Shown here: positions 16,398 through 40,983 of the stretch, in pieces
Layout of the letters: each line of letters begins with the position of its first letter
Numbering within the stretch: position 1 is the first letter of the stretch
Assembly (NCBI GenBank): GCA_963517705.1
Contig: CAUQHH010000001.1
Location: 1-40,983 of the forward strand
Length of the DNA stretch: 40,983 nucleotides
Source: an uncultured Campylobacter sp.
GTDB taxonomy: Bacteria > Campylobacterota > Campylobacteria > Campylobacterales > Campylobacteraceae
Direction: 5' to 3'
Position numbers and translations under genes: made by a program
Notes under the pieces: model-generated
The model's database searches: none
What the model saw: only the letters and a program-made list of their open reading frames with translations
Told to the model about the DNA's origin: nothing

Positions 16398-16972
16398 TTT
16401 ACTATCCTTATTCTGCCCATTGCGCCGTTATAGCCAGCGACGCTGCCTTTTAAAACCAAAATTCCGTTTTCGGCGTCAAAGCTTACGATCTCGTTTTTAA
16501 CGGTAACTTTTTCGTTTCCGGTGTGTCCGGCCATCTTCATACCAGGCTGAACGCGTCCCGGCCACTCGCGGTTACCGATAGAGCCGTGTCTTTTGTGGAA
16601 GCGAGAACCATGGCTTTTTGGGCCACCCGCAAACCCGTGTCTTTTCACGACGCCTTGATAGCCTTTGCCTTTTGAGCTGAAGCTAACTTTTAAAATTTTA
16701 GCCGAACTAAGCGGACTAAAATCAAGATCGCCCGCCTCTTTATTGGCGACTTGTAGGGTTGCGAATTTATTAAATTCCGCCGTTAGGCTATATTTTTTTT
16801 GCTGACCCTCTATGGCTTTATTTTTTGCTTTACCTTTAGCATAAGCTACTATAGCGCAGCCGCATTCACTCACTTCGCAAACTTTAGCGTTTACGACCTT
16901 TAGAAGCGTAACGGGGATGCTTGGGTTGTTTACCGTTCTGCTCATGCCTATTTTTTCTACGATATATTCCAT
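16394..16972 (-). CDS. rplC: 50S ribosomal protein L3
   Basis: [29 protein letters not shown]. Confidence 0.99.
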
Positions 16973-16986
16973 CTTTCACCTCGCCT

Positions 16987-17298
16987 TTATTTGCCCATCG
17001 CGCGGACTTCGACGTTAACCTCAGGGGCTAAGTCGAGCTTTGTTAGCGAGTCGACGGTATCGGGCGTAGCCGCTACGATATCTAGCATTCTAGCGTGAAT
17101 TCTCATTTCAAACTGCTCGCGTGAGTCTTTGTTGATGTGTGGTGATTTTAAGACCGTGTAGCGTTTGATCTTCGTAGGCATCGGCACCGGACCTCTGACG
17201 TCGGCGCCCGTTCGTTTGACAGCTTCTACTATGGCTGCAACTGTGCGGTCGAGAACTCTATGGTCATAAGCTTTAAGCTTAAGCCTGATTCTTTCCAT
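16987..17298 (-). CDS. rpsJ: 30S ribosomal protein S10 (start corrected to ATG 17298)
   Basis: [30 protein letters not shown], preceded by an AAAGGA SD. Confidence 0.99.
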
Positions 17299-26246: not shown

Positions 26247-27229
26247 AAGCATTAGTTTTATTTAGCGGCGGGCTGGACAGCATGATCGCCATCAAGCTGC
26301 TGACAACCCAAGGCATCGACGTCACGGCGGTGCACATCGATATCGGCTTTAGCGGCGACGAGAAAAAGGCAGAAATTTTACGTCGCCGCGCGAACGAAGC
26401 CGGAGCCGAGCTTAAAATAATCGATATCAGAAACGAATACCTGCGCGATGTGCTTTTTACGCCAAAGCACGGTTACGGCAAGCACTTTAACCCATGCATC
26501 GACTGCCACGGATATATGTTTAAAACCGCGCTTGCGATGATGCGCTCGGAGGGTGCGGACTTTATCGCGACCGGTGAAGTGATCGGCCAGCGTCCGATGA
26601 GTCAGAGACGCGACGCGATGGCGCAGGTCAAAAACGCTGCCGGCGACGAGGAGGATCTCATCCTGCGTCCGATGTCTGCGCAGCTGATGAAGCCCACAAA
26701 ACCGGAGCGCGAGGGCTGGGTCGATCGCAGCAAACTGCTCGCCATCAGCGGACGCGACCGCAAAAGGCAGCTCGCGCTTGCGAAAGAGTTTGGCTTTAGT
26801 GAGTACGAGACGCCCGGTGGCGGGTGCCTACTCACGATCGAGAGCTTTGCGAATAAAATCAAAGATTTCATCAAATTTGACCCGGATATGACGAGCGCGG
26901 ATATGCAGCTACTGCGCCTCGGACGCCATCTGCGCCTACCAAACGGCACCAAAATGGTCATCGGCCGCGATGAAAACGACAACGCCAAACTGCTAGCTCT
27001 AAATAATCCGAAATTTACTCAGATCAAATTTGACAGCGATATCGTGGGCGCGGTGAGTTTCATTGACGCTAAATTTAACGAGGCCGACCTCGAGTTTGCC
27101 GTGCGGCTGGCGCTTGCCTACACCAGAGCAGATAAGGATACGGCGGTGCTGGCTAGGATCGGCGAGCGCGAGATTTGCGTGAAGCCTTTTGAGAGTAAAG
27201 AGCCCGCGCAGGAGTTTTTTGTTAGTTAA
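26243..27229 (+). CDS. PP-loop tRNA sulfurtransferase-like protein (ThiI/MnmA-like)
   Basis: FSGGLDS PP-loop, NPCIDCH, TGEVIGQRPMSQ, PGGGCLLT. Confidence 0.85.
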   Translation: MKALVLFSGGLDSMIAIKLLTTQGIDVTAVHIDIGFSGDEKKAEILRRRANEAGAELKIIDIRNEYLRDVLFTPKHGYGKHFNPCIDCHGYMFKTALAMMRSEGADFIATGEVIGQRPMSQRRDAMAQVKNAAGDEEDLILRPMSAQLMKPTKPEREGWVDRSKLLAISGRDRKRQLALAKEFGFSEYETPGGGCLLTIESFANKIKDFIKFDPDMTSADMQLLRLGRHLRLPNGTKMVIGRDENDNAKLLALNNPKFTQIKFDSDIVGAVSFIDAKFNEADLEFAVRLALAYTRADKDTAVLARIGEREICVKPFESKEPAQEFFVS

Positions 27230-27504
27230 ATTTAGGAGCTTTAAATTTGCCTGATTTTCGGAAAATGGCAAATTTAAGCGGCTCGAAGCGCTTAAGTTTT
27301 TGTCGTCTTTCATTAAATTTACCGCAAATTTTAGAGTCCGCGCACGGATAAATTTCAAATTTACAATACAAGCACTTTATTTTAATCAGGCAAAATTTAA
27401 TTTATCTTGCGATATACCAAAATCAAAATGATACTGGCTTTTATTTTATTTTGATATATTTTAAGTATAATTCTCAATTTAATATAATAATGAGAGTTTT
27501 TGCG

Positions 27505-28119
27505 ATGGATTATCAAGGATTATTTTTATTGGCGCAGTTTTTAAACGAGAGAAAAAAGGCAAGTCGTAAAGAGATAGCGGAGTTTTTATCGCGCGAAACG
27601 GGTGCGAGTCAAAGCAAAACCGACGCGCTTTTAAGCGCTATAGCAAATAGCCCTAAAATTCAAGCTTTGTCGCAAGAAAAAAGGATCGTTTTAAAGACTT
27701 CGCGCGGGATTTACGAGATAAGTAAAACCGGCGAAAAACTACTAAAAAGCAAAGACGCTCGGCAAAATTTTGAAGCTTGGATCGGCGACGTTTACGGCGA
27801 AACCGCGACGCAAAAACCGCAAAATTTACCAGCGCCCAAAACTAAAAAATACCTAAAAACCATCACCGCTCTCGTCGTCCACGAGATAAAGGACAAAATG
27901 ATCGGCGAAGCAATCAAAAAGCCGATAGAAGCGATAAAATCGCTCGCTCTAAAGCTCATGAAAAAGCATAAATATCTAGGCAAATTTTATGCTTTTAGAC
28001 ACGTTTTTTTGGCACTTTTGGCTGCCAAGATCGCGTTTGACGTCGTCAAATTCTTTAAAAATCGCAAGCTAGAAAAACTGCTTGCAGGCAATCAACCGGT
28101 AGGCTACTATATAAATTAG
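27505..28119 (+). CDS. hypothetical protein with an N-terminal winged-helix (Mrr-N-like) region and a C-terminal hydrophobic helix; start uncertain (27490 or 27505)
   Basis: SRKEIAEFL..RGIYEISKTGEKLL resembles a wHTH; hydrophobic FYAFRHVFLALLAAKIAF. Confidence 0.6.
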   Translation: MDYQGLFLLAQFLNERKKASRKEIAEFLSRETGASQSKTDALLSAIANSPKIQALSQEKRIVLKTSRGIYEISKTGEKLLKSKDARQNFEAWIGDVYGETATQKPQNLPAPKTKKYLKTITALVVHEIKDKMIGEAIKKPIEAIKSLALKLMKKHKYLGKFYAFRHVFLALLAAKIAFDVVKFFKNRKLEKLLAGNQPVGYYIN

Positions 28120-28232
28120 CTGAAAACAATAAACGATTTATTGTAAATTTATTTTTTGAAAAATTTAACATTATGTTTTTGTCGTCTGCGCGCAACAGAC
28201 CAAACAATGCTATGATTGCAAAAAATTTATTA

Positions 28233-28461
28233 CTTCAAAACTCCAACGGAGTAAAATTTAACAATAGCGCGGGTGTTCCTCGCCGCCTTGCCCCACGAGT
28301 CTCAAACTCCAACGGAGTAAATTTTAACAGGCTGAATCAAATAACCGTTATTCGTACAGTTGCTAGTTTCAAACTCCAACGGAGTAAATTTTAACGGTGT
28401 TTGTTATTTCGCACAAATGCCCTAAGTCGGCGTTTCAAACTCCAACGGAGTAAATTTTAAC
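28233..28461 (-). CRISPR. orphaned trailer segment of the array: 4 repeats, 3 spacers (36, 37, 36 bp)
   Basis: Repeats at 28233 (degenerate, CTTCAAAACTCC..AAAATTTAAC), 28299 (one mismatch), 28366 and 28432. Degeneracy at the left marks the trailer end. Confidence 0.95.
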
Positions 28462-28530
28462 ACCGAAATTTGCGGTATTATGTAGCATCCGCACAAGACT
28501 TTCATTCTAAAATCCGCTAAAATTCAGCCT

Positions 28531-28539
28531 ATTATAGCA
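28531..28539 (-). promoter_or_regulatory. outward-facing extended -10 (TGCTATAAT) inside the left end of the transposon
   Basis: ATTATAGCA on the + strand, the same 9-mer found upstream of host genes at 2525-2533 and 24557-24565. Confidence 0.55.
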
Positions 28540-28556
28540 TATCATAAAGGATTTAT

Positions 28557-28973
28557 ATGGCCGAATCTCACGTAATATCCGCTCTAGTATCTAAACATTC
28601 CGAGCTTCAAGGAAATATCAAATATCATCAAGAAATCGTTTTAAAGCTAAAATCCGAGCTTGAAACCATAGATAAGGCTATTGCGATATTCGACCCTAGT
28701 TATAAAACTACGTTCATTCGAGCTAAGAGAATTAGTAATTCTTCGTATTTTCCTCACGGTGAGCTAAATCGTAGGATTATAGAATGTGTAAAAATAAAGC
28801 CTAGCACTGTAAATGAAATAGCCGAGTATGTTTTTAAAGATGAGCAAGTAGATGACGCTCTTATAGCCAAGTATAAGCAAAACATATCCTCTTTAATTTC
28901 AAAGCTCATAAAAAGAGGAACTGTCTCGTTATTTACCGACAACGGAGTTAAATTTTATAAGATAGCTTCCTAA
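28557..28973 (+). CDS. transposon accessory protein (N-terminal coiled coil plus C-terminal wHTH-like region), convergent with the transposase
   Basis: AAAGGA SD; heptad region SELQGNIKYHQEIVLKLKSELETIDKAI; TVNEIAEY..ISKLIKRGTV is HTH-like. Confidence 0.8.
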   Translation: MAESHVISALVSKHSELQGNIKYHQEIVLKLKSELETIDKAIAIFDPSYKTTFIRAKRISNSSYFPHGELNRRIIECVKIKPSTVNEIAEYVFKDEQVDDALIAKYKQNISSLISKLIKRGTVSLFTDNGVKFYKIAS

Positions 28974-29980
28974 GCTCCAAGCCTTTCGGCTACTCTGTGA
29001 TTGCCTTGCCAGTAACCGCAGAATTCATTTGAGATTGAATTATTAGCCAAACATCTTGATAAAATATCGTCCATTATAGACTTATTATCTAGTCTTCTAG
29101 TGTCTTCTCTATATGCTATCTCGTTAGCATAGTTTGAAAGATAAAGCGTTCCTAGCTTATGGCATTGACCGTATTGCAAGCGTCTAAATCTAGCGTTAAA
29201 ACTTTCCGATTGATTGTTATTCTCTCTGTTTAGTCCCGAATACTCTATTTGGTGGTTTACTCTTTTTAAATCGTAATGAGCTAGCAAATCGTCGTAAGCC
29301 GAGTTTTCATCGGTATAAATTTCGCTGTTTGGCGCAATATGCGATTTAGCGATAGCGTTTATATCTATATTATTTTCGCTTTTTAGAATAAAGGTCTTAG
29401 TTTTACTAGCTCCGCTTCCAAGCAAATTTCTCTCTCTAAGCGATATTATAACTCGTTTATTAGGCTTAAAAGCCTTACGCCTATCTATTCTATCGTTTAT
29501 ATTATTAGCGGGTTTTATATAGTTTCCGACGTATACTCCGTCCATTTCGACTACTCCGCTAAATTTATTTCCGCTATCGCTAGTCATAAGACTTTCTCTG
29601 ATTTTATGAGATAAGACCCAAGCCGTTTTATATTGAACATCTAGGTCTCTACTAAGCTGTAAGGCTGAAATACCTTTCGTAGCGTTTGAGAATATGACGA
29701 TGGCAAGAAGTATGACCTTAAAATCAAGCTTATGAGAGTGAAATATCGTTCCGCTTGTAAGGCTAAAAGTATGAAAGCAATCCTTGCAGCGATATTGTAG
29801 TCTACTTTCTATAAAATAGTGAGACGATGCGCTTCCGCAAGTCGGACAAACGGGATTACCTTTATTGTCGCTCCAACGAATCGACTTAAAATACTCGTAA
29901 CACTCGTTCTCGCTCATAGAAGCTATCTTTCTAACGGAGATTGTTCTGGCTTTAGACGAGAGAAGGAAGTGTTGGGACAT
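28970..29980 (-). CDS. IS1595-family DDE transposase
   Basis: Zn ribbon CPTCG..CKDC, SGTIFH, KGISALQLSRDL..YKTAW, catalytic VEMDG / YTDE / NQSES; uninterrupted 336 aa. Confidence 0.96.
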   Translation of the reverse strand: MSQHFLLSSKARTISVRKIASMSENECYEYFKSIRWSDNKGNPVCPTCGSASSHYFIESRLQYRCKDCFHTFSLTSGTIFHSHKLDFKVILLAIVIFSNATKGISALQLSRDLDVQYKTAWVLSHKIRESLMTSDSGNKFSGVVEMDGVYVGNYIKPANNINDRIDRRKAFKPNKRVIISLRERNLLGSGASKTKTFILKSENNIDINAIAKSHIAPNSEIYTDENSAYDDLLAHYDLKRVNHQIEYSGLNRENNNQSESFNARFRRLQYGQCHKLGTLYLSNYANEIAYREDTRRLDNKSIMDDILSRCLANNSISNEFCGYWQGNHRVAERLGA

Positions 29981-30125
29981 TTTTAAGCCTTTTATGTATT
30001 TTTATTTTTGATATATGTATTATACATAGATATTGCTTAAAATACTATAAGTTATTTACCTAAATTTACTTGCTTTTAAATTAAGAAAAATTGTATAATA
30101 CGCTTATATATAATTAAGGCACATA

Positions 30126-30335
30126 ATGAATTACGATGAATTTTTATTAAAGCTTAAAGAAGCAGGAATAGATAGAGACGAATTTGCCGAGCTTACTAAG
30201 ACGAACAAGCTAACTATGAACGGCTGGGCTACGACTAGGCAAGGTAGAAAAACACCAGAGTGGGTGGATAGTTGGATTAATTTATATCTTTCAAATAGAG
30301 ACAAGGATATAATTATAAGAGAGTTGAGGAGATAA
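30126..30335 (+). CDS. small XRE/Cro-like HTH regulator, divergent from the transposase
   Basis: IDRDEFAELTKTNKLTMNGW..PEWV; TTGCTT-18 bp-TATAAT promoter at 30070-30099. Confidence 0.75.
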   Translation: MNYDEFLLKLKEAGIDRDEFAELTKTNKLTMNGWATTRQGRKTPEWVDSWINLYLSNRDKDIIIRELRR

Positions 30336-30604
30336 AATGCTAGGAACCAAAATAGTACTAAACGAAGAAAAAAAGAATTTTTTGCTTTGCAAAATGAGCG
30401 TAGCGACCCGAAGGGGCATTTCTAAGGGAAGCGAAGTGACCGAGTAAAAAACTACTTAGCCCTGCTGCTTCCCTAATTTTTTACTTCGTTGCACTCGCAA
30501 CTACTAGCAGAAGTGCGGGAGCGAGTAGCTGACTTATAGCACGCTCTTAAATTTATTAAGTTAAATTTAAATAAAATAACACACTAAACAAGGGGCGACA
30601 GCAA

Positions 30605-30871
30605 ATGACACTAGCACAAATGCTTGAAGGAATTCATAAGCAAATAGAAGATCTTGAAATGAAAGACATATCTCAAAAAGAGATGGCTCAAAGACTAGGA
30701 ATTTCACTGAGTGCTTATGCTTCTTGGTTAGGTGATACTAAAAAACCAAAAGCTATGAGCGCACTTCTTGATATGTTAGCTATGCTTGATGATGAGGGTA
30801 TGGTTATGGTTGTGAGAGAGTGGGAGAGTAGCAAAAAAGAAAAATCAAAAGAGGATAAAAAATGGCAGTAA
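30605..30871 (+). CDS. XRE-family HTH regulator upstream of mod-res (possible R-M controller)
   Basis: ISQKEMAQRLGISLSAYASWL is a classic XRE HTH; AAGGGG SD. Confidence 0.8.
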   Translation: MTLAQMLEGIHKQIEDLEMKDISQKEMAQRLGISLSAYASWLGDTKKPKAMSALLDMLAMLDDEGMVMVVREWESSKKEKSKEDKKWQ

Positions 30872-30913
30872 TAACGAAGAAAGATATTGCAATTGAAGCA
30901 TTAAGGAAATAAA

Positions 30914-33352
30914 ATGATAAAAAATGAAAAAAAATTTTGGGATATATTAACTAGTCTTTTTGTAGGTGCAGAAGTAAAAGGAAAATCTGGCTTCATAAAT
31001 CTTATGATTGCAAAACAAAACTATTTTGGAAAAGTAAAAGAAGAGCTACTTATACAAATAGAAGAAATTTGTAAGGATAATAAAGATTTTAAAGACGAGC
31101 TTTACGACAAGCTTTATAGTTTTTTTCATAGATATTTTAGTATTTCGGGAAGTATTTACTACAATTACACACCACTTTTTTATAATATCTATACAAAAGC
31201 CTATGGTGATAATACAAATGATACCAGAATCTTCTCGGGTGATTATGAACAAGTAATATCAAACAAGCAAGACACTTCGCTTTTCTATAAAACTCAGATG
31301 CTTTACTATGTCAAATCGGATAAAATTTTTAAAGACCTTGAAATTGAAATAGAGGATAAAAAATACATTTTTGATGTTTCAAATATGCAAGGTAAAAAAG
31401 CTAATGAAAAGAAAAGCCTTGTTTATGAATTAAAGTCGATTGAAAATAATTTATTAGCTTTCAATGTCAATTATTCCGAAAACGGAAAAGTTACAAAAAT
31501 CGATAATATTACAAAAGAAGCTAAAAAATCAAAAATGGAGCTAAACGAAGCAGATTTAAAAAAAGCTTTTCAGATATTTGAAAAACAATCAAACATAGAT
31601 TATTTTATCAATAAAGATGCAAAAAAGTTTTTATTCGAGCAGCTTGATATGTGGATATATCAATATATGTTTAGCCAAGAAGTTGATTTTAATATGCAAA
31701 GATTTAATCAAATTCAAGACTTTAAAAAAGTAGCTTCCAAGATTATAAACTTCATATCCCAGTTTGAAAATGAGCTTGTAAAAATCTGGAACAAGCCTAG
31801 GTTTGTGCTAAATTCAAACATCGTAGTAACAATCGATAAATTAAAAGCTAAAGGCTTTAATATAGACAAACTAAAAAATCATAAAAAATTTAAAGAGCAG
31901 CAAAGGGAATGGGAAGAATTGGGAATAATTCAAGATAATAGCTTAATAGAAAATGAATTTATGCCTATCGATACAAAATACTTTAGCGAATTTAAAGATG
32001 AGATTGAAAGCCTTTTTGAGCCTGATGAATTTGATGGACTGTTAATAAAAAGTGAAAATTATCAAGCTTTAAATACTATACTCCCTAGATTTAAAGACAG
32101 GATTGATTTGATCTATATAGACCCACCTTTTAATACAGGCGATGATTTTGCTTATATCGATAAATTTCAAAATAGCACGTGGCTTAGCCTGATGGAGAAT
32201 AGACTTGAACTCGCCAAAGAGTTTTTAAGCAAAAGGGGGAGTTTTTATTTGCACCTTGATGAAAACGCTGACTTCTTAGGAAGAATGTTGCTTGGTAAAT
32301 TATTCAGTGATTATGAAATTAAAAAAATAACGATGGATACAAATGCTACGAAAGATGAAGAAGCCGATTTGTTTGGATATAAAAGCTTTGGTAAAAATTT
32401 TGCACTAAAAAGTCAAACTATATACTTTATGAAGACTGAAAATTCTATTTTTAATAAACTTTGGAAACCAAATAGGAATATAAGCAACTTAAACTTAGGA
32501 CAAATGGACCTAATTGCTATTCCTAAAAAACAAATACTTATTTCTAAGAAAATTGAAGATTTTGATTACTACATTGAAAAGTATAATGAAAATAAATTAG
32601 AATTATTAAGAATAGATATACAGGATGAAAAAATTTATCCTGTAAGTGATATATGGAATGACTTATACTCATTTACGCAATCTGAAATGAGAGTAAGCGA
32701 AAATATATCATTCCAAAGTTCTCAAAAGCCAGAAAACTTGATAAGAAGGGTTATTCAATCTAGCTCCAAAACGAATAGCTTAGTTATGGATTTTTTTGCT
32801 GGAAGCGGAACAACTTGTGCTGTGTCTCACAAGCTAAAAAGAAAATATATAGGAATAGAAACTGGAGAGCATTTTTATGATTTTTATTATACAGACAATG
32901 GTGAAAAAAGATTAGGTTTGCTTGGAAGAATGAAAAATGTAATAAATGGTGATATAATATTTAAAGCAATAGAGAAAAATAGACGCTCAACTTTATCAAA
33001 AAATATTAACTACAAAGGTGGAGGTATATTTAAATACTATGAATTAGAGCAATATGAGCAAATTTTAAGAAGCACAATCTACAAAGACACACCAGATGAT
33101 TATCTCAATAGCAAGGAGAGTAGTGAAATTAAGGATTGCTTTTTGTTTGATGAAAAATTATCAAATGTAATTATTGCTGAAAATGATGGCTTTAAAGTAA
33201 ATTTAGGAAATCTATACCCAAATATCGATTTGAAAGAGACCATTCATAATATCACAGGAAAAAGACCTAAAAAGATAACAGATACAAAAGTAATATTTGA
33301 AGATAGAGAATATGAGCTTATCGAAATATTAAAACCATTGCTTGTTTGGTAA
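30914..33352 (+). CDS. mod: type III R-M DNA methyltransferase (beta-class amino-MTase with long N-terminal extension)
   Basis: Motif IV LIYIDPPFNTG precedes motif I DFFAGSGTT; QKPENLIRRVI; GGGIFKYYEL; adjacent to res. Confidence 0.92.
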   Translation: MIKNEKKFWDILTSLFVGAEVKGKSGFINLMIAKQNYFGKVKEELLIQIEEICKDNKDFKDELYDKLYSFFHRYFSISGSIYYNYTPLFYNIYTKAYGDNTNDTRIFSGDYEQVISNKQDTSLFYKTQMLYYVKSDKIFKDLEIEIEDKKYIFDVSNMQGKKANEKKSLVYELKSIENNLLAFNVNYSENGKVTKIDNITKEAKKSKMELNEADLKKAFQIFEKQSNIDYFINKDAKKFLFEQLDMWIYQYMFSQEVDFNMQRFNQIQDFKKVASKIINFISQFENELVKIWNKPRFVLNSNIVVTIDKLKAKGFNIDKLKNHKKFKEQQREWEELGIIQDNSLIENEFMPIDTKYFSEFKDEIESLFEPDEFDGLLIKSENYQALNTILPRFKDRIDLIYIDPPFNTGDDFAYIDKFQNSTWLSLMENRLELAKEFLSKRGSFYLHLDENADFLGRMLLGKLFSDYEIKKITMDTNATKDEEADLFGYKSFGKNFALKSQTIYFMKTENSIFNKLWKPNRNISNLNLGQMDLIAIPKKQILISKKIEDFDYYIEKYNENKLELLRIDIQDEKIYPVSDIWNDLYSFTQSEMRVSENISFQSSQKPENLIRRVIQSSSKTNSLVMDFFAGSGTTCAVSHKLKRKYIGIETGEHFYDFYYTDNGEKRLGLLGRMKNVINGDIIFKAIEKNRRSTLSKNINYKGGGIFKYYELEQYEQILRSTIYKDTPDDYLNSKESSEIKDCFLFDEKLSNVIIAENDGFKVNLGNLYPNIDLKETIHNITGKRPKKITDTKVIFEDREYELIEILKPLLVW

Positions 33353-33361
33353 GGAATTTTT

Positions 33362-36187
33362 ATGGCAAAGCAAAAAAAATTAATAGATGAACATAGCTAT
33401 AAAATAGTATTGCAGCAATTAGCGGAAAATGAATTTTTAAATATCGATATAAACGAATTTGATTTTAGTAGCTTTTCAAATGAAAAAACTTTATTTGAGT
33501 ATCAAGTAGAAGCTTTACAAAATGCTTTTAGAGTTTTATTAAAATTTTATAAAGATTACGATGCGGACAAAGAAAAATTCTATAACAAAGAGTATAAAAA
33601 ATACCCCCATGTGAACCTTGATTATTTAAAACCAAATGATCTATTGCAAGAATATTTTCCAATAATAGGTAAAAGAATAGAATTCCGTCATTTTGTAAAC
33701 CGTATGAGTTTTTGGATGACAATGGGAAGTGGTAAAACTATTGTTATTATAAAACTTATAGAGCTTTTAGATAGGGCTATGCAAATAGAGCTGATACCCA
33801 AGAAAAATATTTTGTTTTTTACGGCTAATGAAGGGCTGCTGGATAGATTTAAAAAAGAAGTTGATGAGTATAATTTGCTTAAAGAAAAAAACATTGATGC
33901 GATTAGTTTAAAAGATTACGAAGAGAGACAAAAAAATAGTTCTTTATTTGACTCTCAAATTATAAAGCTCTTTTGTTATAGGGCTGATTTGATGAATGAT
34001 GAGAGAAAAGAGGCTACGCTTGATTTTAAGGACTACTTTGATGACGGAAACAATTATATAATTCTTGATGAAGCCCACAAAGGAGATAAGCAAGATTCCA
34101 AAAGACAAAACATATTCTCAATACTTTCTAAAAATGGATTTTTGTTTAATTTTAGTGCAACTTTTACTGATGAATCCGATATTGCAACTACGATTTATAA
34201 TCTCAATCAAGCAGTTTGGGTTAAAAAGGGATATGGGAAAAAGCTATTTTTATTAGATAACGACTTAAAAGCTTTTAAAGAAAAGTCAGACTTAAATGAA
34301 AATGAAAAACAACAGGCAACATTAAAGTCATTATTGCTTTTAGCCCTTGCAAAAAAATATAAATTGTCTGATGCTTACCATGACCCTATGATGGTAGTTT
34401 TTACAAATTCAGTCAATACTGTTGAATCAGATGCGGAACTATTTTTTAGAACCCTACAGTCTATAGCAAAGGATGATCTTCAAAAAATATTTAATGAAGC
34501 TAAGATGGGTCTCAAAAAAGAGTTTAAAGATACTAAAGATCTTGTAACAGACAAAGATGGAGAGGGAGTATCTGAACTTGCGGATCAAGTAGGTCAAATA
34601 TCTTTTGATGAGCTGAAAGAGTTAATTTTTTATGCGAAAAATGGAAATATAGAAGCTATTATTAATCCTAAAGACAAAACAGAGATTGCTTTTAAATTAG
34701 ACAGTGTAGATAAGCCATTTTGCTTAATCAAAATAGGAGATATTAGTTCATGGCTTAAGGAAAAACTAAAAAATATAAAAATTGACGAGACTTTTAAAGA
34801 AGAGAGCTATTTTAAATCACTGTATAGCAGCAGTATAAATATTCTCTTAGGAAGTCGTGCTTTTTATGAGGGTTGGGATACGACAAGACCTAATATTATG
34901 CTTTTCTTAAATATAGGCATGGATAAAGAAGCTAAGAAATTTGTAACTCAATCTATCGGCAGAGGAATGAGAGTTGAATCAGTCGACGGAAGTCGTCAAA
35001 GAATAGATTTTATCAATATTGATAAAAAAGCTCAAATAAGTAAAAATGTAAAAACTTTAGAAACTTTATTTGTTATTTCTACGAATAAGGAAGCCATCAG
35101 CTCTATTGTATCATGGCAAGAAGAACAAAATAAAGGTATTGATTGGCTTGAAGTTGAACTGAAAAAAAATGAAACACCGAATAGAATACTTTTTATTCCT
35201 GTTTATAAGCAGCATAAGATAAGCGCGGATAGAATAAATAGCAAAAAAGCTTTTAAATTAAGCGATAAAAACAAAAAAGACTTAAAAATTTATATGCGCA
35301 ATCTTGCCCCTCAAATATTTGCTTTAAGACATAATTTTTATAATAAAAAAGAATATGACTTATTGGTTCAAATGGCAAGCAAAGATGATGCTTTTTTCAT
35401 TGACAAAAATACCCATTATAAATCTTTAGATACTTTAATTGAAAAGCTTAAAAATAGACTATATATAAAACAAAGCACAGTAGATACATTTAAAGCTTTA
35501 AATGATGAGATTGTGCATTTTAAAAAGATAAAAGTAAGAGAAGATAAGAAAGAAGAGTTTGTAAAAACTATTTTTCAAGCAATTGAAATGCAAAATTTAA
35601 CAGACGAAGAAGTATCACAAAAGGCAAAAGAAGATGGCATTTCTTTAAAGAAAGCAATTGAATTGTATCAAGCAACGGACATATCTTTTTGTGACGCCAA
35701 ATTTCAAAAAATGTTAAATCATTACTATAATCCTGTCATAAGCGGTAAAGATCTTGATTGGATAAGAAATATAATTTCAGAAGAGAGCGAGGTTGTATTT
35801 TTAGAAAAACTTACAGAAATTTGCAAAGATATTGATGAAAAATATGACTGGTGGATGTTTAGTAAATTGAACCAATACTATGACAAGGATATCTATATTC
35901 CATACATAGAGGACGGTGAACAAAAACCATTTCATCCTGATTTTATTTTTTGGCTACAAAAAGGCAACAAGCAAACAATTATATTCATTGATCCTAAAGG
36001 GGATAGGTTTGGGGATTATCAACATAAAATTGACGGTTATAATGAAGTTTTTTTAAATAAAACTTTTGATGTCGAAAACATAAAAATTGATGTAAAGTTA
36101 GCTCTGGTAAGAATAACTAATACAACAGTTGGAAAAGAGTATGAGCATTATTGGTTTTCCAAGGATGACTTATTAAGTGTTTTTTAA
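33362..36187 (+). CDS. res: type III restriction endonuclease (SF2 helicase plus PD-(D/E)xK nuclease)
   Basis: MTMGSGKT, ILDEAH, FSATF, EGWD, QSIGRGMR, C-terminal PDFIFW..FIDPKG. Confidence 0.93.
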   Translation: MAKQKKLIDEHSYKIVLQQLAENEFLNIDINEFDFSSFSNEKTLFEYQVEALQNAFRVLLKFYKDYDADKEKFYNKEYKKYPHVNLDYLKPNDLLQEYFPIIGKRIEFRHFVNRMSFWMTMGSGKTIVIIKLIELLDRAMQIELIPKKNILFFTANEGLLDRFKKEVDEYNLLKEKNIDAISLKDYEERQKNSSLFDSQIIKLFCYRADLMNDERKEATLDFKDYFDDGNNYIILDEAHKGDKQDSKRQNIFSILSKNGFLFNFSATFTDESDIATTIYNLNQAVWVKKGYGKKLFLLDNDLKAFKEKSDLNENEKQQATLKSLLLLALAKKYKLSDAYHDPMMVVFTNSVNTVESDAELFFRTLQSIAKDDLQKIFNEAKMGLKKEFKDTKDLVTDKDGEGVSELADQVGQISFDELKELIFYAKNGNIEAIINPKDKTEIAFKLDSVDKPFCLIKIGDISSWLKEKLKNIKIDETFKEESYFKSLYSSSINILLGSRAFYEGWDTTRPNIMLFLNIGMDKEAKKFVTQSIGRGMRVESVDGSRQRIDFINIDKKAQISKNVKTLETLFVISTNKEAISSIVSWQEEQNKGIDWLEVELKKNETPNRILFIPVYKQHKISADRINSKKAFKLSDKNKKDLKIYMRNLAPQIFALRHNFYNKKEYDLLVQMASKDDAFFIDKNTHYKSLDTLIEKLKNRLYIKQSTVDTFKALNDEIVHFKKIKVREDKKEEFVKTIFQAIEMQNLTDEEVSQKAKEDGISLKKAIELYQATDISFCDAKFQKMLNHYYNPVISGKDLDWIRNIISEESEVVFLEKLTEICKDIDEKYDWWMFSKLNQYYDKDIYIPYIEDGEQKPFHPDFIFWLQKGNKQTIIFIDPKGDRFGDYQHKIDGYNEVFLNKTFDVENIKIDVKLALVRITNTTVGKEYEHYWFSKDDLLSVF

Positions 36188-36335
36188 TAAAATAAACCCC
36201 ACAATACAATAAAAACTACTTATAAATATGGTAGAAATTATAATGAACTAGTCGACAAACTTCTAATTCTACTTCTACCCTTGTCGAAATCAAAGCATAT
36301 TAAGTTTTTTAAAAAGTGCCGTTTGGGGTATTCAG

Positions 36336-36364
36336 AAGTCTTGTACGAATACTACATAATATCG
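36336..36364 (-). repeat. internal (inner) right inverted repeat of the transposon
   Basis: Reverse complement CGATATTATGTAGTATTCGTACAAGACTT matches IRL 28473-28501 at 25/29 positions. Confidence 0.9.
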
Positions 36365-36607
36365 AAAAATCCACTATACATACAAATTAACTTAAACCAA
36401 ACCCAAAATGTTAATGATATTTGTAGAAAAATAAGGTACGACTTTCTAGGGTTAAATAGTGGAATTTTATCCCAAATGATCCTAAAAACCTTAGTATAAA
36501 AAACCATTTCTGGTATCATTCTTGGATTTTATTAAAAGATCATTAAATGTCTAGGTGCATTTGCCACATAATATCGGAAATTTGCACTCTTGATAGAAGC
36601 GCTATTA

Positions 36608-38281
36608 GTTTCAAACTCCAACGGAGTAAATTTTAACGCCGTTTCTTTTATGGTAGCCGCTCACGCTCTTGCCGGTTTCAAACTCCAACGGAGTAAATTT
36701 TAACTATCCCCGAGGCAAAAAAGGTTATGGCAAATTTTAAGTTTCAAACTCCAACGGAGTAAATTTTAACAACGAAATAATCAAGAGAGATAATATTTTC
36801 AAAATGTTTCAAACTCCAACGGAGTAAATTTTAACTTTACCCATGCAAAAAACTAGGGCGAAGTATCGTGTTTCAAACTCCAACGGAGTAAATTTTAACT
36901 TTACCAACCAAAGTTGTTACTCTATATTTATCCATAGTTTCAAACTCCAACGGAGTAAATTTTAACCCGGTATCGCAAAATACCAGCTCGTACAAACACT
37001 AGCGTTTCAAACTCCAACGGAGTAAATTTTAACGAAGGGTTTGCAGGGTCTAGATTTGGACAAACCGCGTAGTTTCAAACTCCAACGGAGTAAATTTTAA
37101 CGGCGCAATCTTGTCAAAAAACGTAAGCGCCAAAGCATCTGCAGTTTCAAACTCCAACGGAGTAAATTTTAACAAAAGCCGTGCGGCTATTTAGGTTATT
37201 TAGGCGGCGTTTCAAACTCCAACGGAGTAAATTTTAACCTACATCTATGCAACAGCGTGAATTGCTTTTGCACTCGTTTCAAACTCCAACGGAGTAAATT
37301 TTAACTCTTTATTTAGCTCCTTGCCGCTTTGTAAATCAGCGTTTCAAACTCCAACGGAGTAAATTTTAACGTAAATAAGGGAATTGAGCCTACGAGAAGA
37401 AATGTGTTTCAAACTCCAACGGAGTAAATTTTAACTACAGATTTGCGTAGAAAAGGCGGCTTGCTCGAAGTTTCAAACTCCAACGGAGTAAATTTTAACC
37501 TCATATCGTCCGCATATAAAGACACCGTAAAAAGTTTCAAACTCCAACGGAGTAAATTTTAACCTAAATGATTTCTCAAATAAAGATAACTTTTGATGTT
37601 TCAAACTCCAACGGAGTAAATTTTAACGCAAATACGGAAAAATTTGACGAGAGAATTTGAGAGTTTCAAACTCCAACGGAGTAAATTTTAACACTAGGGG
37701 CAGATTATGGCGATAGATAGAGTTGAGCGTTTCAAACTCCAACGGAGTAAATTTTAACTCAATAGCCTTGATATTTGCGGACGCCTGCTCGAGGTTTCAA
37801 ACTCCAACGGAGTAAATTTTAACGATGGGGGTATATTTTATACCGGCAACGTCTGAAGTTTCAAACTCCAACGGAGTAAATTTTAACCCTAACTTGAGCT
37901 ACAAAAGGCTTAAATTTAGCATGTTTCAAACTCCAACGGAGTAAATTTTAACGGGCGTTCAAGTAGAATATCATTGGCGGTTTTTTGAGTTTCAAACTCC
38001 AACGGAGTAAATTTTAACCTAAAATTAATCCTTATTCTCTTTAGTTTTTTTTGCCGTTTCAAACTCCAACGGAGTAAATTTTAACTTTGAGAATAAATAA
38101 GCCACTTCATCAACAGTATGTTTCAAACTCCAACGGAGTAAATTTTAACCTCGGGGCGTTTCGTAGGGTGTATCATACAAGATTTGTTTCAAACTCCAAC
38201 GGAGTAAATTTTAACTTAATTTTGCGTTATGCTGCATAAACGACGTAATAGGTTTCAAACTCCAACGGAGTAAATTTTAAC
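36608..38281 (-). CRISPR. main CRISPR array: 26 repeats of 30 bp and 25 spacers of 34-42 bp; repeat as transcribed GTTAAAATTTACTCCGTTGGAGTTTGAAAC
   Basis: Repeats counted by hand from 36608 to 38252. The 3' GAAAC end and ACTCC/GGAGT hairpin are typical of type I-B-like repeats. Leader and cas genes lie to the right. Confidence 0.98.
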
Positions 38282-38645
38282 AGCACCAAAATATACATTT
38301 TTAGGGCTATTAAAACTCAGAGTTTATATTTTTACGCCTTAAATTTGGATAAAAATCAAAATATTATTGATACGAAGTGCCCTAAATTTCATCATTTCTA
38401 AAATCTTAGAAAAAGCTTTATCGACATGATTTGGATTTAAAAAGGCACTTAGAAATCAAATATCCCGCCGCGAAAAGAGCAAACTAGCACCCCCCAACTC
38501 GATACCGTAGCCAAAGACGCATAGGTCAAATTTGAACGCAAATGCGTAGCGATTTTTGTGCTGCATTTTGATGAAGCCAAGGCCCTAAAATCAAATCATC
38601 AAAATACAACCAAGATACTTTGATCCTGCCGACAAAATATCAAAT
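38282..38645 (-). promoter_or_regulatory. CRISPR leader region
   Basis: AT-rich non-coding DNA between the cas1 stop and the first repeat, opposite the degenerate end. Confidence 0.75.
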
Positions 38646-39644
38646 TTATCCCCACCTAAACCCCTCATAAGGCGCGTCCTCGCAGATACATTTTTTGATC
38701 TGATTAGCTTCGCGGCGGATCACCTGCCGCCACGTGAGATCGCGACCGCCCAGCGAGATCGTTTCGCCAAGCCTCGCGATCATTTTTAGCTCGATCTTTT
38801 GCACGGCGTCGTTGCTAAATTTTATCCGCCCGGCGTCCGTTTGGAAGTCCTTTGCCGTGATCTCTTTTTTATTTAGCATGCTAAAAATCAGCGTATCGCC
38901 CAAAATCGGCTTAAAAATCTCCGCAAGATCGAGGTGTAGGCTCAGCGCACGGTAGTTTGGCTCGTGCAAAAAGCCGATGCGCGGATCAAGCTCGGTTTTG
39001 TAAATTTCGCTTAGGCAGACGTTATAAATGCGCGTATTTACGTAGCTTATGAAGCTGTTGATTTTGTCGGCGGGCGGGCGCTTGGAGCGGACGGTAAATT
39101 TAAAGCTTTTTTGATCCGCGATTATTTCGTTCCACTTTTCGTAGTAGAGCTTTTGAAACGCCCCTTCCACCGCCATTATCGCAGGTACGTCCGCAGCGGC
39201 ATTTAGCGCCTCTATATGGGGCGAGACGTCAAATTTCACGCCATGTCTTTTGCAGTTTGCCGCGTCGTTTAGGATGTGTGCGCGAGTGATCTCGCGGGCG
39301 ATGTAGGCGCGCTTAAGCGGATCGTCAAAGGCGCGAACCTGTTTTAGCAGCACGAAGCCGCTTTTATTGACCGAGTTTGAGGTATTTGGATAAAAGTTGC
39401 CGCGAAAGCTCTGATAAGGGCTAAAAACGTGCAAAAGGACGTTATTATCCGCCAGAAACGCCATAGTGTAGGTATCGATCTGCACTTTTGCCAGCACGTA
39501 AATTTCATCAATCGCATTTATCGGCAAAATTTTACTAGCGGCGAGCGCGCCCGCATCGTCAAATTTATCAAAATAGATATTGTTATCTTGCCTGCGAAGC
39601 TTGCCTGCGCTCAAAATAAAATGCGTCCTGTCGCTTTTTTGCAT
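38646..39644 (-). CDS. cas1: CRISPR-associated integrase Cas1
   Basis: GKLRRQDNNI, IMAVEG, RSKRPPADKINSFISY, DPRIGFLH..LHLDLAEIFKP. Confidence 0.97.
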   Translation of the reverse strand: MQKSDRTHFILSAGKLRRQDNNIYFDKFDDAGALAASKILPINAIDEIYVLAKVQIDTYTMAFLADNNVLLHVFSPYQSFRGNFYPNTSNSVNKSGFVLLKQVRAFDDPLKRAYIAREITRAHILNDAANCKRHGVKFDVSPHIEALNAAADVPAIMAVEGAFQKLYYEKWNEIIADQKSFKFTVRSKRPPADKINSFISYVNTRIYNVCLSEIYKTELDPRIGFLHEPNYRALSLHLDLAEIFKPILGDTLIFSMLNKKEITAKDFQTDAGRIKFSNDAVQKIELKMIARLGETISLGGRDLTWRQVIRREANQIKKCICEDAPYEGFRWG

Positions 39645-39713: not shown

Positions 39714-39992
39714 TTAACTAAACAGCGCGTTATTTTTGTCCTGTCCGATTACGATACGCTTGGAGTATTTCAGCGAATTAAACGTGTAAATCACGATAGA
39801 ATCGAGCTGCGTAATGCACTCTTTTTGCAAAATCGCGCTTAGTTTTTTAAAATCGCTCTCGCGAATCTCGCCTTCAAAAACGGAAAACTGCACGCGCGGC
39901 AAAAACTTCTCGACCGCCTTTCTGATGCGGTTTGCGTTGTTTTTCTCTTTTTGCTCGGCGCCGGCGATGTCGTAAAATAAAATCACGTACAT
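39714..39992 (-). CDS. cas2: CRISPR-associated Cas2
   Basis: MYVILFYDI..RVQFSVFEG..DSIVIY. Confidence 0.96.
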   Translation of the reverse strand: MYVILFYDIAGAEQKEKNNANRIRKAVEKFLPRVQFSVFEGEIRESDFKKLSAILQKECITQLDSIVIYTFNSLKYSKRIVIGQDKNNALFS

Positions 39993-40014: not shown

Positions 40015-40515
40015 TTAACTCGCACAATATCCGCTATAAGCGCAGTTTGCGCAAAATTTACCCTGCGTAAATTTCGGCGGTCGCTCTAGATTTACGAGTG
40101 ACGTTATCTCGCTTAAAATTTGCTCTATTAGAGCGAAATTTTCGCTGCTGTCATCCACCAAAATCACCTTTTTACCGCTGATTAGTTTGCCTTTTACCTC
40201 TTTTAAATTTAAGCCAGTTTTTAAAAGATAGACGTAAAAAAGTAGCTGCATCTTGCCTGCAAGCTCGTTTTTTAGGCTCTTTTTATACTCCGTGACGAGA
40301 TAATGTCCGCGCTGCTTGGAAAGTTTATCGAATTTCAAATTTGAAAATGCAAACTCCTGCAAATCGCTCTCTTTGATCTCCGCCAGCGCCTTGCCCATCA
40401 GCACGTTTTCATCCTCCTGATCGGCGTGGATATGGTGAGCGTAAAGCCACGCCTCGCGCCTGCAGGTAACGTAATAATTCACAAGCGTGCCGGTGATTTG
40501 ATCTTTGCAAAACAT
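40015..40515 (-). CDS. cas4: CRISPR-associated Cas4
   Basis: ITGTLVNYYVTCRREAWL, FD..EYKKS, QLLFY, C-terminal CANCAYSGYC Fe-S ligands. Confidence 0.95.
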   Translation of the reverse strand: MFCKDQITGTLVNYYVTCRREAWLYAHHIHADQEDENVLMGKALAEIKESDLQEFAFSNLKFDKLSKQRGHYLVTEYKKSLKNELAGKMQLLFYVYLLKTGLNLKEVKGKLISGKKVILVDDSSENFALIEQILSEITSLVNLERPPKFTQGKFCANCAYSGYCAS

Positions 40516-40983
40516 TAGTCGAATACCTCTTCAGCAATCGTAAGCTTAGGCAGGAAGCCGTCAAATTTATTATAGAAATTGCCTGGCGGTAAGATACGTA
40601 TGCCAAAATAATCTTTTAAAGTGGTTTTATAATCTTTTTTAAGTTCTTCTAGTAAATTTTCACCGACGGATATCGTGTATAATCCTAAATCTTTTTCCAA
40701 ATCTTTAATTTCGGCAAGAATTTTAAATTTATCATCATTTGATTGCAACAATTTATCCCGATTATCTAAAAACTCGCTGAAATGCCCACTATATTGCTCT
40801 ACAAAAAGCGAGACCTTCCAGTCCTGCTTAGGCATAAAATTTTCATTAAACTTTTTAAATAATGTTTGAAATTCCAGGTTTTTAGCATATTGCAATAAAT
40901 TTACGCTAGTCGTTTCATTTTTAGTACCTTCAAAATAGCTCTCTAAGACATTATAAATTTCGCTCTCTTTTATATTTTGCGAT
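40515..40983 (-). CDS. cas3: C-terminal part of a long ORF open to the window edge, probably Cas3
   Basis: Frame stays open upstream of the ORF-track TTG (..ESEIYNVLESYFEG..). It is translationally coupled to cas4, the usual cas3 position in type I-B. No HD or helicase motifs are visible in the window. Confidence 0.6.
   Translation of the reverse strand, partial: SQNIKESEIYNVLESYFEGTKNETTSVNLLQYAKNLEFQTLFKKFNENFMPKQDWKVSLFVEQYSGHFSEFLDNRDKLLQSNDDKFKILAEIKDLEKDLGLYTISVGENLLEELKKDYKTTLKDYFGIRILPPGNFYNKFDGFLPKLTIAEEVFD

Follow-up and report, generated by a model that had tools for sequence, protein, structure and literature searches.

In a 40,983-nucleotide contig of an uncultured Campylobacter sp. 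(assembly GCA_963517705.1, contig CAUQHH010000001.1; the whole of this stretch is referred to below as the window), an insertion sequence (IS) element of the IS1595 family carrying restriction-modification (R-M) genes is inserted in a spacer of a CRISPR array (an array of short palindromic repeats, clustered and regularly interspaced), and the lineage to which this element belongs is found in such arrays well above a target-weighted expectation. We consider the joint reading, an insertion in a spacer together with a real bias of the lineage towards arrays, to be probable (roughly 0.7). Taken by itself, the structure of the insertion is close to certain. The insertion alone is of a known kind; what is new is the combination of a fixed chassis, a swapped R-M cargo and an array excess that is specific to one lineage.

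The insert spans positions 28473-36576 (8,104 bp) and interrupts a 30-repeat, type I-B-like array, which is left in parts of 4 and 26 repeats. The repeat-to-repeat gap that holds it (28462-36607) measures 8,146 nt, as against 34-42 nt for every other spacer, and repeat mapping thereby reproduced the spacer range given in an earlier, sequence-only reading of this DNA. An exact 8-bp target-site duplication, GAAATTTG, is present at 28465-28472 and 36577-36584, directly outside the ends of the insert, which read CGGTATTATGT... on the left (from 28473) and CGATATTATGT... on the right (reverse complement, from 36576). The terminal inverted repeats are imperfect, with 17 of the 22 outermost bases identical: the left one (CGGTATTATGTAGCATCCGCAC, 28473-28494, forward strand) is identical or nearly so in the closest relatives, referred to as clade A, and the right one (reverse complement CGATATTATGTGGCAAATGCAC, 36555-36576, reverse strand) resembles the ends of the elements of clade B. 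Deletion in silico of the insert and of one GAAATTTG copy restores a 34-nt spacer between repeats; the left 11 nt of this spacer are found at 28462-28472, their last 8 nt (28465-28472, GAAATTTG) being one copy of the duplication, and 36577-36607 holds the second copy (36577-36584) followed by the right 23 nt. The insertion that the sequence-only reading had proposed on the grounds of the 4 + 26 split, the inverted repeats, the exact duplication and the restored spacer is therefore borne out in each of these features. The element is single-copy in its own genome, and its G+C content is 30.6%, versus 45% for window bases 1-28000 and 46% for the genome. Seven array-borne relatives with the same type of junction argue against a chance look-alike.

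Relatives were sought in a survey in which the element DNA was compared with 325 genomes of the same bacterial family, one genome per species; a search with the transposase protein gave matches in 39 of the 325 at E <= 1e-40. The ends of the relatives were located by similarity to the left end of the window element. Searching with a 15-mer end pattern at 2 mismatches gave as many matches as the reversed control did, and the transposase protein together with longer patterns was used instead. The resulting site table comprises 42 loci at which one or both ends, with flank, are available, and 40 distinct sites once two pairs sharing the same site in two species are merged; it omits ten transposase-match loci with no recognisable end in the stretch examined and one locus with its end at a contig end. 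Seven of the 40 distinct sites are inside CRISPR arrays, so that the preference for arrays, which the sequence-only reading had put forward as something to be tested on homologues, received support.

Besides the window (spacer, exact duplication GAAATTTG), the array-borne loci are L014 (G077), whose left end lies within a repeat and which has no duplication; L015 (G133), in a spacer and also without duplication; L017 (G150), within a repeat and with the duplication AATTTACC; L042 (G136), 11 nt beyond a repeat in a window-like geometry, where the contig ends before the duplication; L057 (G044), a 2.9-kb derivative without transposase that occupies the sole spacer of a two-repeat array (~95 bp) beside cas1-cas2-cas4, with an exact duplication; and L068 (G105, contig 2), a remote relative, its transposase 39-50% identical, whose array belongs to another repeat family and which again has an exact duplication. 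An eighth array case, with the right end 12 nt from a repeat, was found in G325 by a scan of species-representative genomes. In that scan, the records of the relevant loci name Campylobacter concisus, C. showae and uncultured Campylobacter. The offsets to the next repeat start are -11 (window), -11 (G136), -12 (G325) and -21 (G044), and the duplications fall at repeat positions 5-12 in G077 and 6-13 in G150, and in mid-spacer in the other repeat families. The positions cluster to some degree at the repeat's AT-rich 5' edge, although the numbers are small and the window of comparison is post hoc. Since the array cases differ in spacer, position, orientation (both are found), cargo and repeat family (three are represented), most of them are separate events. 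L014 and L015 (4,421 and 4,423 bp) share the same cargo and both lack target duplications, and the right flank of L014 looks like an adjacent deletion of ~50 bp, which hints at further activity, or recombination, after insertion.

The null expectation was computed for the genome to which the window belongs, after in-silico deletion of the element. Arrays account for 0.10% of all bases in this genome, for 0.19% when the bases are weighted by an 8-mer matrix drawn from non-array duplications only, and for 0.6-1.0% with the same weighting outside open frames of 80-150 amino acids (aa). The probability of finding at least 7 of 40 sites in arrays is 1.4e-07 at p = 0.01 and 3.4e-03 at p = 0.05. The repeat family of the window is present in 84 of the 142 genomes of the genus, and half of the clade A sites in genomes with this repeat family (6/12) are in an array. 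When the two clades are compared, 7 of 20 sites are in arrays for clade A versus none of 12 for clade B (Fisher 0.023), although clade B elements are similar to those of clade A in size, cargo and target composition. The Campylobacter lineage is thus found in arrays approximately 20- to 100-fold above the target-weighted null, and because this excess is far beyond chance, CRISPR arrays look like a favoured landing site for the relatives of the element. That the bias is real is likely.

More distant relatives were recovered by an exact end-pattern scan of metagenomes, which returned at least 128 stretches; the DNA of 80 loci was taken and gave 81 ends with 75 distinct flanks. Most of the matches listed belong to a different end subtype, ...GCAGTTGCACAA (L079-L158). 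Among the matches listed, a AAGTGCGGT-like core is found no more than 45 nt away in 29 of the 75 flanks, versus 2 of 462 control windows from the same flanks, and it always reads towards the element, at a distance of 9 nt or 16-22 nt (in one case 29). We take this motif to be an uptake signal of the Haemophilus type, as in the terminators of Pasteurellaceae. For paired metagenome elements with an exact duplication, five of the nine empty sites, once rebuilt, coincide with the apex of a strong hairpin formed by an inverted pair, with a minimum free energy (MFE) of -14.6 to -21.1 as against about -3.6 in controls. Such sharp hairpin targeting by the relatives indicates that the family is capable of target choice: a family of IS1595 relatives can be very selective in its landing, and the favoured site differs between lineages. 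Hairpin-apex targeting was also considered for the Campylobacter elements and was rejected, the MFE of the rebuilt empty sites not being consistently below that of their flanks.

Several observations weigh against the joint reading. Those that touch the insertion itself concern the assembly and the missing counterpart of the filled site. The window makes up one entire contig of an assembly in 191 contigs (completeness 92%, contamination 2%), and the junctions are read from this fragmented assembly. An empty-site allele, for which the sequence-only reading had suggested looking in related Campylobacter genomes, was not found when 567 bp of the array were searched in the 142 genus genomes: the matches, at ~70% identity only, were repeats, and the spacers were not common to any of them. 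An exact search of metagenome contigs with the right half of the spacer and the start of the repeat gave 0 matches. The cargo contributes a further point, namely the lack of matches of its Res protein to curated restriction models, which is described below. An artefact of assembly or binning, by which a foreign element was joined to an array contig, would agree with the fragmentation and contamination figures, with junctions read from the assembly and with a G+C content of the insert 15 points below that of the genome. It would have to explain, however, how both junctions came to share an 8-mer and how the flanks rejoin to a spacer of normal length, for which an assembler offers no reason; the same architecture is also seen in seven other assemblies, and several of the loci with array junctions come from isolate-style records. 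We consider such an artefact extremely improbable.

The remaining points concern the bias. The null was derived from one genome and a 12-site matrix; each species is represented by a single genome in the site count, and related genomes are partly non-independent; the ten transposase loci without ends are excluded from the count. The positions struck in arrays vary (-21, -12, -11, -11, +5 and +6 relative to the repeat start, plus mid-spacer), and the fact that three unrelated repeat families were hit argues against recognition of one repeat sequence. Among the metagenome matches listed, 3 of the 75 flanks are in arrays (the G325 site, the G105 site and one new site in a third repeat family), and the 22 non-Campylobacter ends with the same inverted repeats gave 0 in arrays. 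The MFE of the rebuilt empty sites gave no hairpin signal in Campylobacter. Finally, exact duplications mark 11 distinct non-array sites, and at 9 of these the empty site is not crossed by any open frame of at least 100 aa; retention in harmless DNA therefore contributes to the observed distribution.

If retention were the whole explanation, the element would have no target choice: it would insert at any AT-rich 8-mer, and the survivors would gather in dispensable non-coding DNA such as arrays. The preponderance of non-array sites outside long frames is what this would predict, and so are the duplicated targets, which are AT-rich with only a weak consensus, the varied positions in three repeat families, and the lack of array insertions among clade B and non-Campylobacter elements. 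Arrays constitute only 0.6-1.0% of the weighted non-coding target, however, versus 17.5% of the sites observed, and one of the arrays struck consists of only 2 repeats over ~95 bp. Retention alone would also have to account for clade B, which is similar in size, cargo and target composition and yet has 0/12 sites in arrays, for the half of the clade A elements in array-bearing genomes that sit in an array, and for the relatives that target hairpins with sharp positioning. We judge it improbable that retention suffices, and retain the reading of an insertion with a real lineage bias towards arrays.

Array copies could also have spread by natural transformation and recombination between CRISPR repeats, starting from one or a few transpositions. 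Campylobacter is naturally transformable, one repeat family is shared by 84 of the 142 genus genomes, and the shared cargo of L014 and L015, which lack a target duplication, would fit this route. The split spacer halves of the donor would travel along with the element, yet the flanking half-spacers and the positions differ in every case. Four distinct array cases (the window, L017, L057 and L068) keep an exact 8-bp duplication, the cargo differs among the window, L014/L015, L017, L057 and L068, and two cases are in unrelated repeat families. Spread by recombination is highly improbable as the source of the array excess, and separate insertions with a bias towards arrays remain the preferred reading.

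The elements of this family share one end and differ in the rest. Several genomes of the genus contain the first 1,853 bp of the window element, and only these, at 85-93% identity, and more of the genomes contain shorter stretches of it; this left module comprises the inverted repeat, the gene orf138, the transposase gene and a small open reading frame (ORF). The R-M cargo of the window recurs in only one of the 325 genomes (G020), and there without the IS. The related elements measure 2.9-7.7 kb, their inverted repeats match at 22 or more of up to ~30 bp, and an exact 8-bp duplication is present in 15 of the 25 elements for which both ends were examined, one same-site pair included. A scan of the ORFs of 22 elements with Pfam, from which two elements with short ORFs only and two same-site duplicates were omitted, identified a DNA methyltransferase domain in 21. 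Most of the scanned elements also carry a recognisable restriction partner: NgoBV, HaeII, R.Pab1, AlwI, or LlaJI (the last with a McrB-like ATPase), MmeI-like fused enzymes, S-subunit-like proteins or, in L048, a canonical type III pair. Across the family, one constant chassis carries exchangeable R-M cargo.

The window copy is itself a mosaic. Its outer right end, which carries the duplication, is of the clade B type, and 212 bp inside this true end there is a second right-end-like copy of the clade A type (36336-36364, reverse strand), with 4 mismatches to the left end. In addition, at 30548-30834, the element's helix-turn-helix (HTH) gene has DNA with 96% identity to that of L052 and L053, both of clade B. 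Two left-end segments are found head to head on contig 14 of G058 (437-1445; 437-632 on the forward and 630-1445 on the reverse strand), an unusual arrangement that consists of two partial elements. Beyond Campylobacter, the same 24-nt end is present in methanotroph, Sulfuricellaceae, Gallionellaceae and other proteobacterial assemblies. In one Sulfuricellaceae assembly (among L213-L243), no fewer than 11 ends, each on its own contig, have this 24-nt inverted repeat, which points to a burst of copies remote from Campylobacter. A search of a plasmid collection gave no match to the element, and one viral contig carries the inverted-repeat pattern.

The cargo of the window element begins with a gene for an 88-aa HTH protein (30605-30871, forward strand; HTH_3, 9.1e-05, just under the cut-off), located directly upstream of mod, and this protein is a possible controller of the R-M genes. 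The mod gene (30914-33352, forward strand) encodes a type III DNA methyltransferase of 812 aa in which a DPPF motif precedes a FAGSGT motif. Along its whole length this protein matches the PADLOC model MTase_III PDLC03638 (8e-216; residues 3-812 cover positions 3-816 of the 816 in the model), and further matches are PF01555 and type III Mod proteins of the PDB at 1e-09 (best: 6k0w, 4zcf). The res gene (33362-36187, forward strand) starts 10 bp after mod and encodes a Res-like protein of 941 aa with a superfamily 2 (SF2) helicase domain (PF04851 ResIII, 6.2e-16, residues 110-269) and a C-terminal PD...DxK-like motif. Its helicase motifs are collinear with those of the canonical Res of a related element, the similarity being weak (E 0.005-0.06), and its PDF...IDPK motif occurs in the same order as the canonical Res nuclease motif, with a BLASTP E value of only 1.4 for this segment. 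A Pfam search of Res gave no nuclease domain, and Res has no match to the curated type III restriction models of PADLOC or to PDB sequences; 'type III-like' is consequently the safer wording. The type III assignment made in the sequence-only reading is upheld for Mod and for the ResIII helicase domain of Res, and is softened for the restriction side. Both proteins have full-length alignments to a pair of chromosomal homologues in G020, without the IS; Res is 85% identical to its counterpart and Mod 66%, with the central recognition region replaced. The transposase, Mod and Res all align full length to relatives, in agreement with the earlier statement that the cargo is intact. On this evidence the cargo is best described as a putative type III-like R-M system with a probable controller gene.

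The transposase gene (28970-29980, reverse strand) encodes a protein of 336 aa with a zinc ribbon and a DDE domain and contains no stop codons, unlike many of the relatives, in which the transposase is broken. Its attribution to the IS1595 family, also proposed from the sequence alone, is confirmed by matches to PF12762 DDE_Tnp_IS1595 (1.9e-37, 129 bits, cut-off 27), PF12760 (1.1e-14, residues 23-70) and NCBIfam NF033547 (8.2e-38, 130 bits, cut-off 75), and agrees with the 8-bp duplication, the inverted repeats and the passenger genes. The gene orf138 (28557-28973, forward strand) is a conserved core gene, present in 13 elements at 38-95% identity, and shares 4 bases with the 3' end of the transposase gene. 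Its product has no family match in Pfam, NCBIfam or PADLOC. The predicted fold (predicted local distance difference test score 77.6) consists of a 45-residue N-terminal helix followed by a C-terminal winged helix; the best Foldseek matches are all winged-helix DNA-binding regulators, although weak (E >= 0.009), and leads from the ESM Atlas agree. Orf138 is accordingly modelled as a conserved winged-helix protein. The 3' end of orf138 (28940-28961) contains a 19-22-mer resembling one half of the CRISPR repeat; it consists of the 9-mer CAACGGAGT and then, shifted by 1 nt, AAATTTTA. This likeness is read as chance because the stretch encodes the conserved wing and the clade B proteins differ at those residues. 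The 1.85-kb left module is closed by orf69 (30126-30335, forward strand; 69 aa), which has no family match here; small ORFs at the same place in 5 other elements match DUF6471. Between orf69 and the HTH gene, a stretch of ~37 nt (30478-30514) has ~90-92% identical counterparts in many of the genus genomes, at places without an element, and may be a small dispersed repeat.

A mechanism consistent with these features can be sketched. The DDE transposase would bind both terminal inverted repeats, and the element would be joined to staggered cuts, spaced by 8 bp, within spacer 26 as counted from the leader, giving rise to the GAAATTTG duplication. The transpososome, made of the transposase and perhaps Orf138, would favour AT-rich 8-mers near repeat-spacer junctions, with Orf138 as a candidate target selector; the harmless array site would help insertions to persist, and the mod/res cargo should protect the host and penalise loss of the element. 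Target choice by the transpososome is the cause of the array bias that we favour, but only tentatively, as we consider it rather less likely than not. The stronger proposal, that this IS1595 lineage is a dedicated R-M vehicle that actively homes to arrays, perhaps steered by Orf138, while sister lineages home to terminators with uptake-signal hairpins, seems to us somewhat unlikely. Relief of self-targeting was also considered as an advantage of the insertions and was not supported: 410 spacers (duplicates included) compared with 26 elements gave no alignment longer than 20 nt.

The host system is of a type I-B-like kind, with the array located beside cas1 (38646-39644, Pfam Cas1), cas2 (39714-39992, Pfam Cas2), cas4 (40015-40515, Pfam Cas4) and the C-terminal part of cas3 (40515-40982, PADLOC Cas3b), all on the reverse strand; the contig ends inside cas3. 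The repeat is 30 nt long and present in 30 copies, four of which start at 28233, 28299, 28366 and 28432, and 26 between 36608 and 38252. The trailer-side part of the array (28233-28461, reverse strand), with 4 repeats and 3 intact spacers, is now 8.1 kb from the leader, and its first two repeats are degenerate and trailer-like; the leader-side part (36608-38281, reverse strand) has 26 repeats and 25 spacers. As the cas genes adjoin this 26-repeat part and the degenerate repeats occupy the opposite end of the array, the leader presumably corresponds to 38282-38645 (reverse strand), between cas1 and the first repeat, a placement made by position only. Counted from the leader, the insertion thus destroys spacer 26; the three oldest spacers are cut off from the leader, and the other 25 stay connected. 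This fits the statement in the sequence-only reading that one spacer was destroyed and three were cut from the leader. The genes are arranged in the order cas3-cas4-cas2-cas1 towards the array, with cas2 before cas1, as in a second genome (L057, 5387-7182), and the usual order in type I-B systems is cas4-cas1-cas2. A second, degenerate mini-array with 4-5 repeat-like copies of the same repeat family is found in the same genome (contig C6, ~16950-17210), with no element nearby. A 222-aa ORF (27451-28119) that adjoins the trailer end of the array gave no match in searches of Pfam, NCBIfam and PADLOC, and Rfam at the gathering threshold gave no match in 27200-38700.

The IS1595 family is described, in the part of the source available, as producing 8-bp duplications and as having transposases with a zinc finger and a DDE domain, in several groups including ISNha5 (PMC8101967), and transporter IS (tIS) are described, likewise in part, as carrying passenger genes (PMC11891212). 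The window element, read here as a complete tIS, resembles the tIS of the ISNha5 group, as far as that group is presented there, in its single DDE transposase with an N-terminal zinc ribbon, its inverted repeats, its 8-bp duplication and its passenger genes, the HTH gene, mod and res lying inside the inverted repeats. At 8.1 kb it is slightly above the size range of the group. Its ends read CGGTATT and CGATATT; the end consensus of the ISNha5 group we take to be CGGnnTT, a string that a literature search found in no paper. The element differs from the ISNha5 group in having a conserved second core gene, that of Orf138 with its predicted winged helix, and the family cargo is almost always R-M, as opposed to the transcription regulator given, in the portion of the literature at hand, as the passenger of ISNha5. 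In the source annotation the transposases of the relatives are named no further than 'IS1595 family transposase'.

Mobile R-M genes with similar borders have been described before. In the sections available, Furuta, Abe and Kobayashi (2010) report isolated R-M units that resemble transposons, being bordered by 8-bp direct repeats and imperfect inverted repeats, among them a unit of N. gonorrhoeae with 26-bp repeats, type IIG and S genes and a decayed COG3677 transposase-like gene, and they state that the moving agent of these units is unknown (PMC2853133). In contrast to the units in those sections, the transposase is intact here, a whole family with swapped R-M cargo is present and the sites are biased. 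Insertion within arrays also has a precedent: the cyanobacterial Tn7-like transposons of Chacon Machado and Peters (2025), according to the passages available, target CRISPR arrays, within spacers, and the array is read as a safe site (PMC11837452). The Campylobacter lineage is comparable to what is described there in its enrichment in arrays. Of its 8 array insertions, 3 lie 11-12 nt from a repeat, 2 fall at repeat positions 5-13 and the rest differ. It differs in its single IS1595 DDE transposase, with no TnsABC/TnsD, in positions that vary, in its defence cargo and in its Campylobacter host. As the DDE transposase is the sole transposition gene of the element, the resemblance to Tn7 is one of behaviour and not of membership. 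IS insertions into cas genes, in the excerpt available, inactivate CRISPR-Cas and abolish immunity (PMC10359306); unlike the insertions in that excerpt, the window element is located near the array trailer, and the cas genes and 25 spacers stay connected to the leader. With respect to its cargo, the element resembles systems of the EcoP15I type in the order of mod and then res 10 bp later, in a Mod with motif IV before motif I, and in a Res with SF2 motifs and a putative PD...DxK-like motif; unlike these, its Mod has an N-terminal extension of ~390 aa and its Res is too diverged for matches to PADLOC models or PDB sequences. A literature search found neither a report of IS1595-family elements within CRISPR arrays nor one of a tIS family dedicated to R-M genes; Siguier et al. 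(2009) may bear on both.

The window element is a clear, intact example of R-M mobility, with the cargo placed on a simple one-transposase element, and it bears on the mechanism that the 2010 survey left open. One chassis carries type II, type IIG, type III, LlaJI-like and S-subunit-bearing systems. It also points to a second kind of transposon, mechanistically unrelated to Tn7, that gathers in arrays, which bears on the clustering of defence genes and on the decay of arrays. For the C. concisus/C. showae group, a practical consequence is that array typing and spacer analyses will be broken by inserts of 3-8 kb. If the bias reflects target choice, a 336-aa transposase and a 138-aa DNA-binding protein would make up a very small regionally selective system. 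If homing to arrays were true, innate defence would be stacked beside adaptive defence, and this would provide a direct mechanism for the building of defence islands; safe-site targeting, so far a hallmark of Tn7-like transposons, would then be a general and retargetable property of a one-transposase family.

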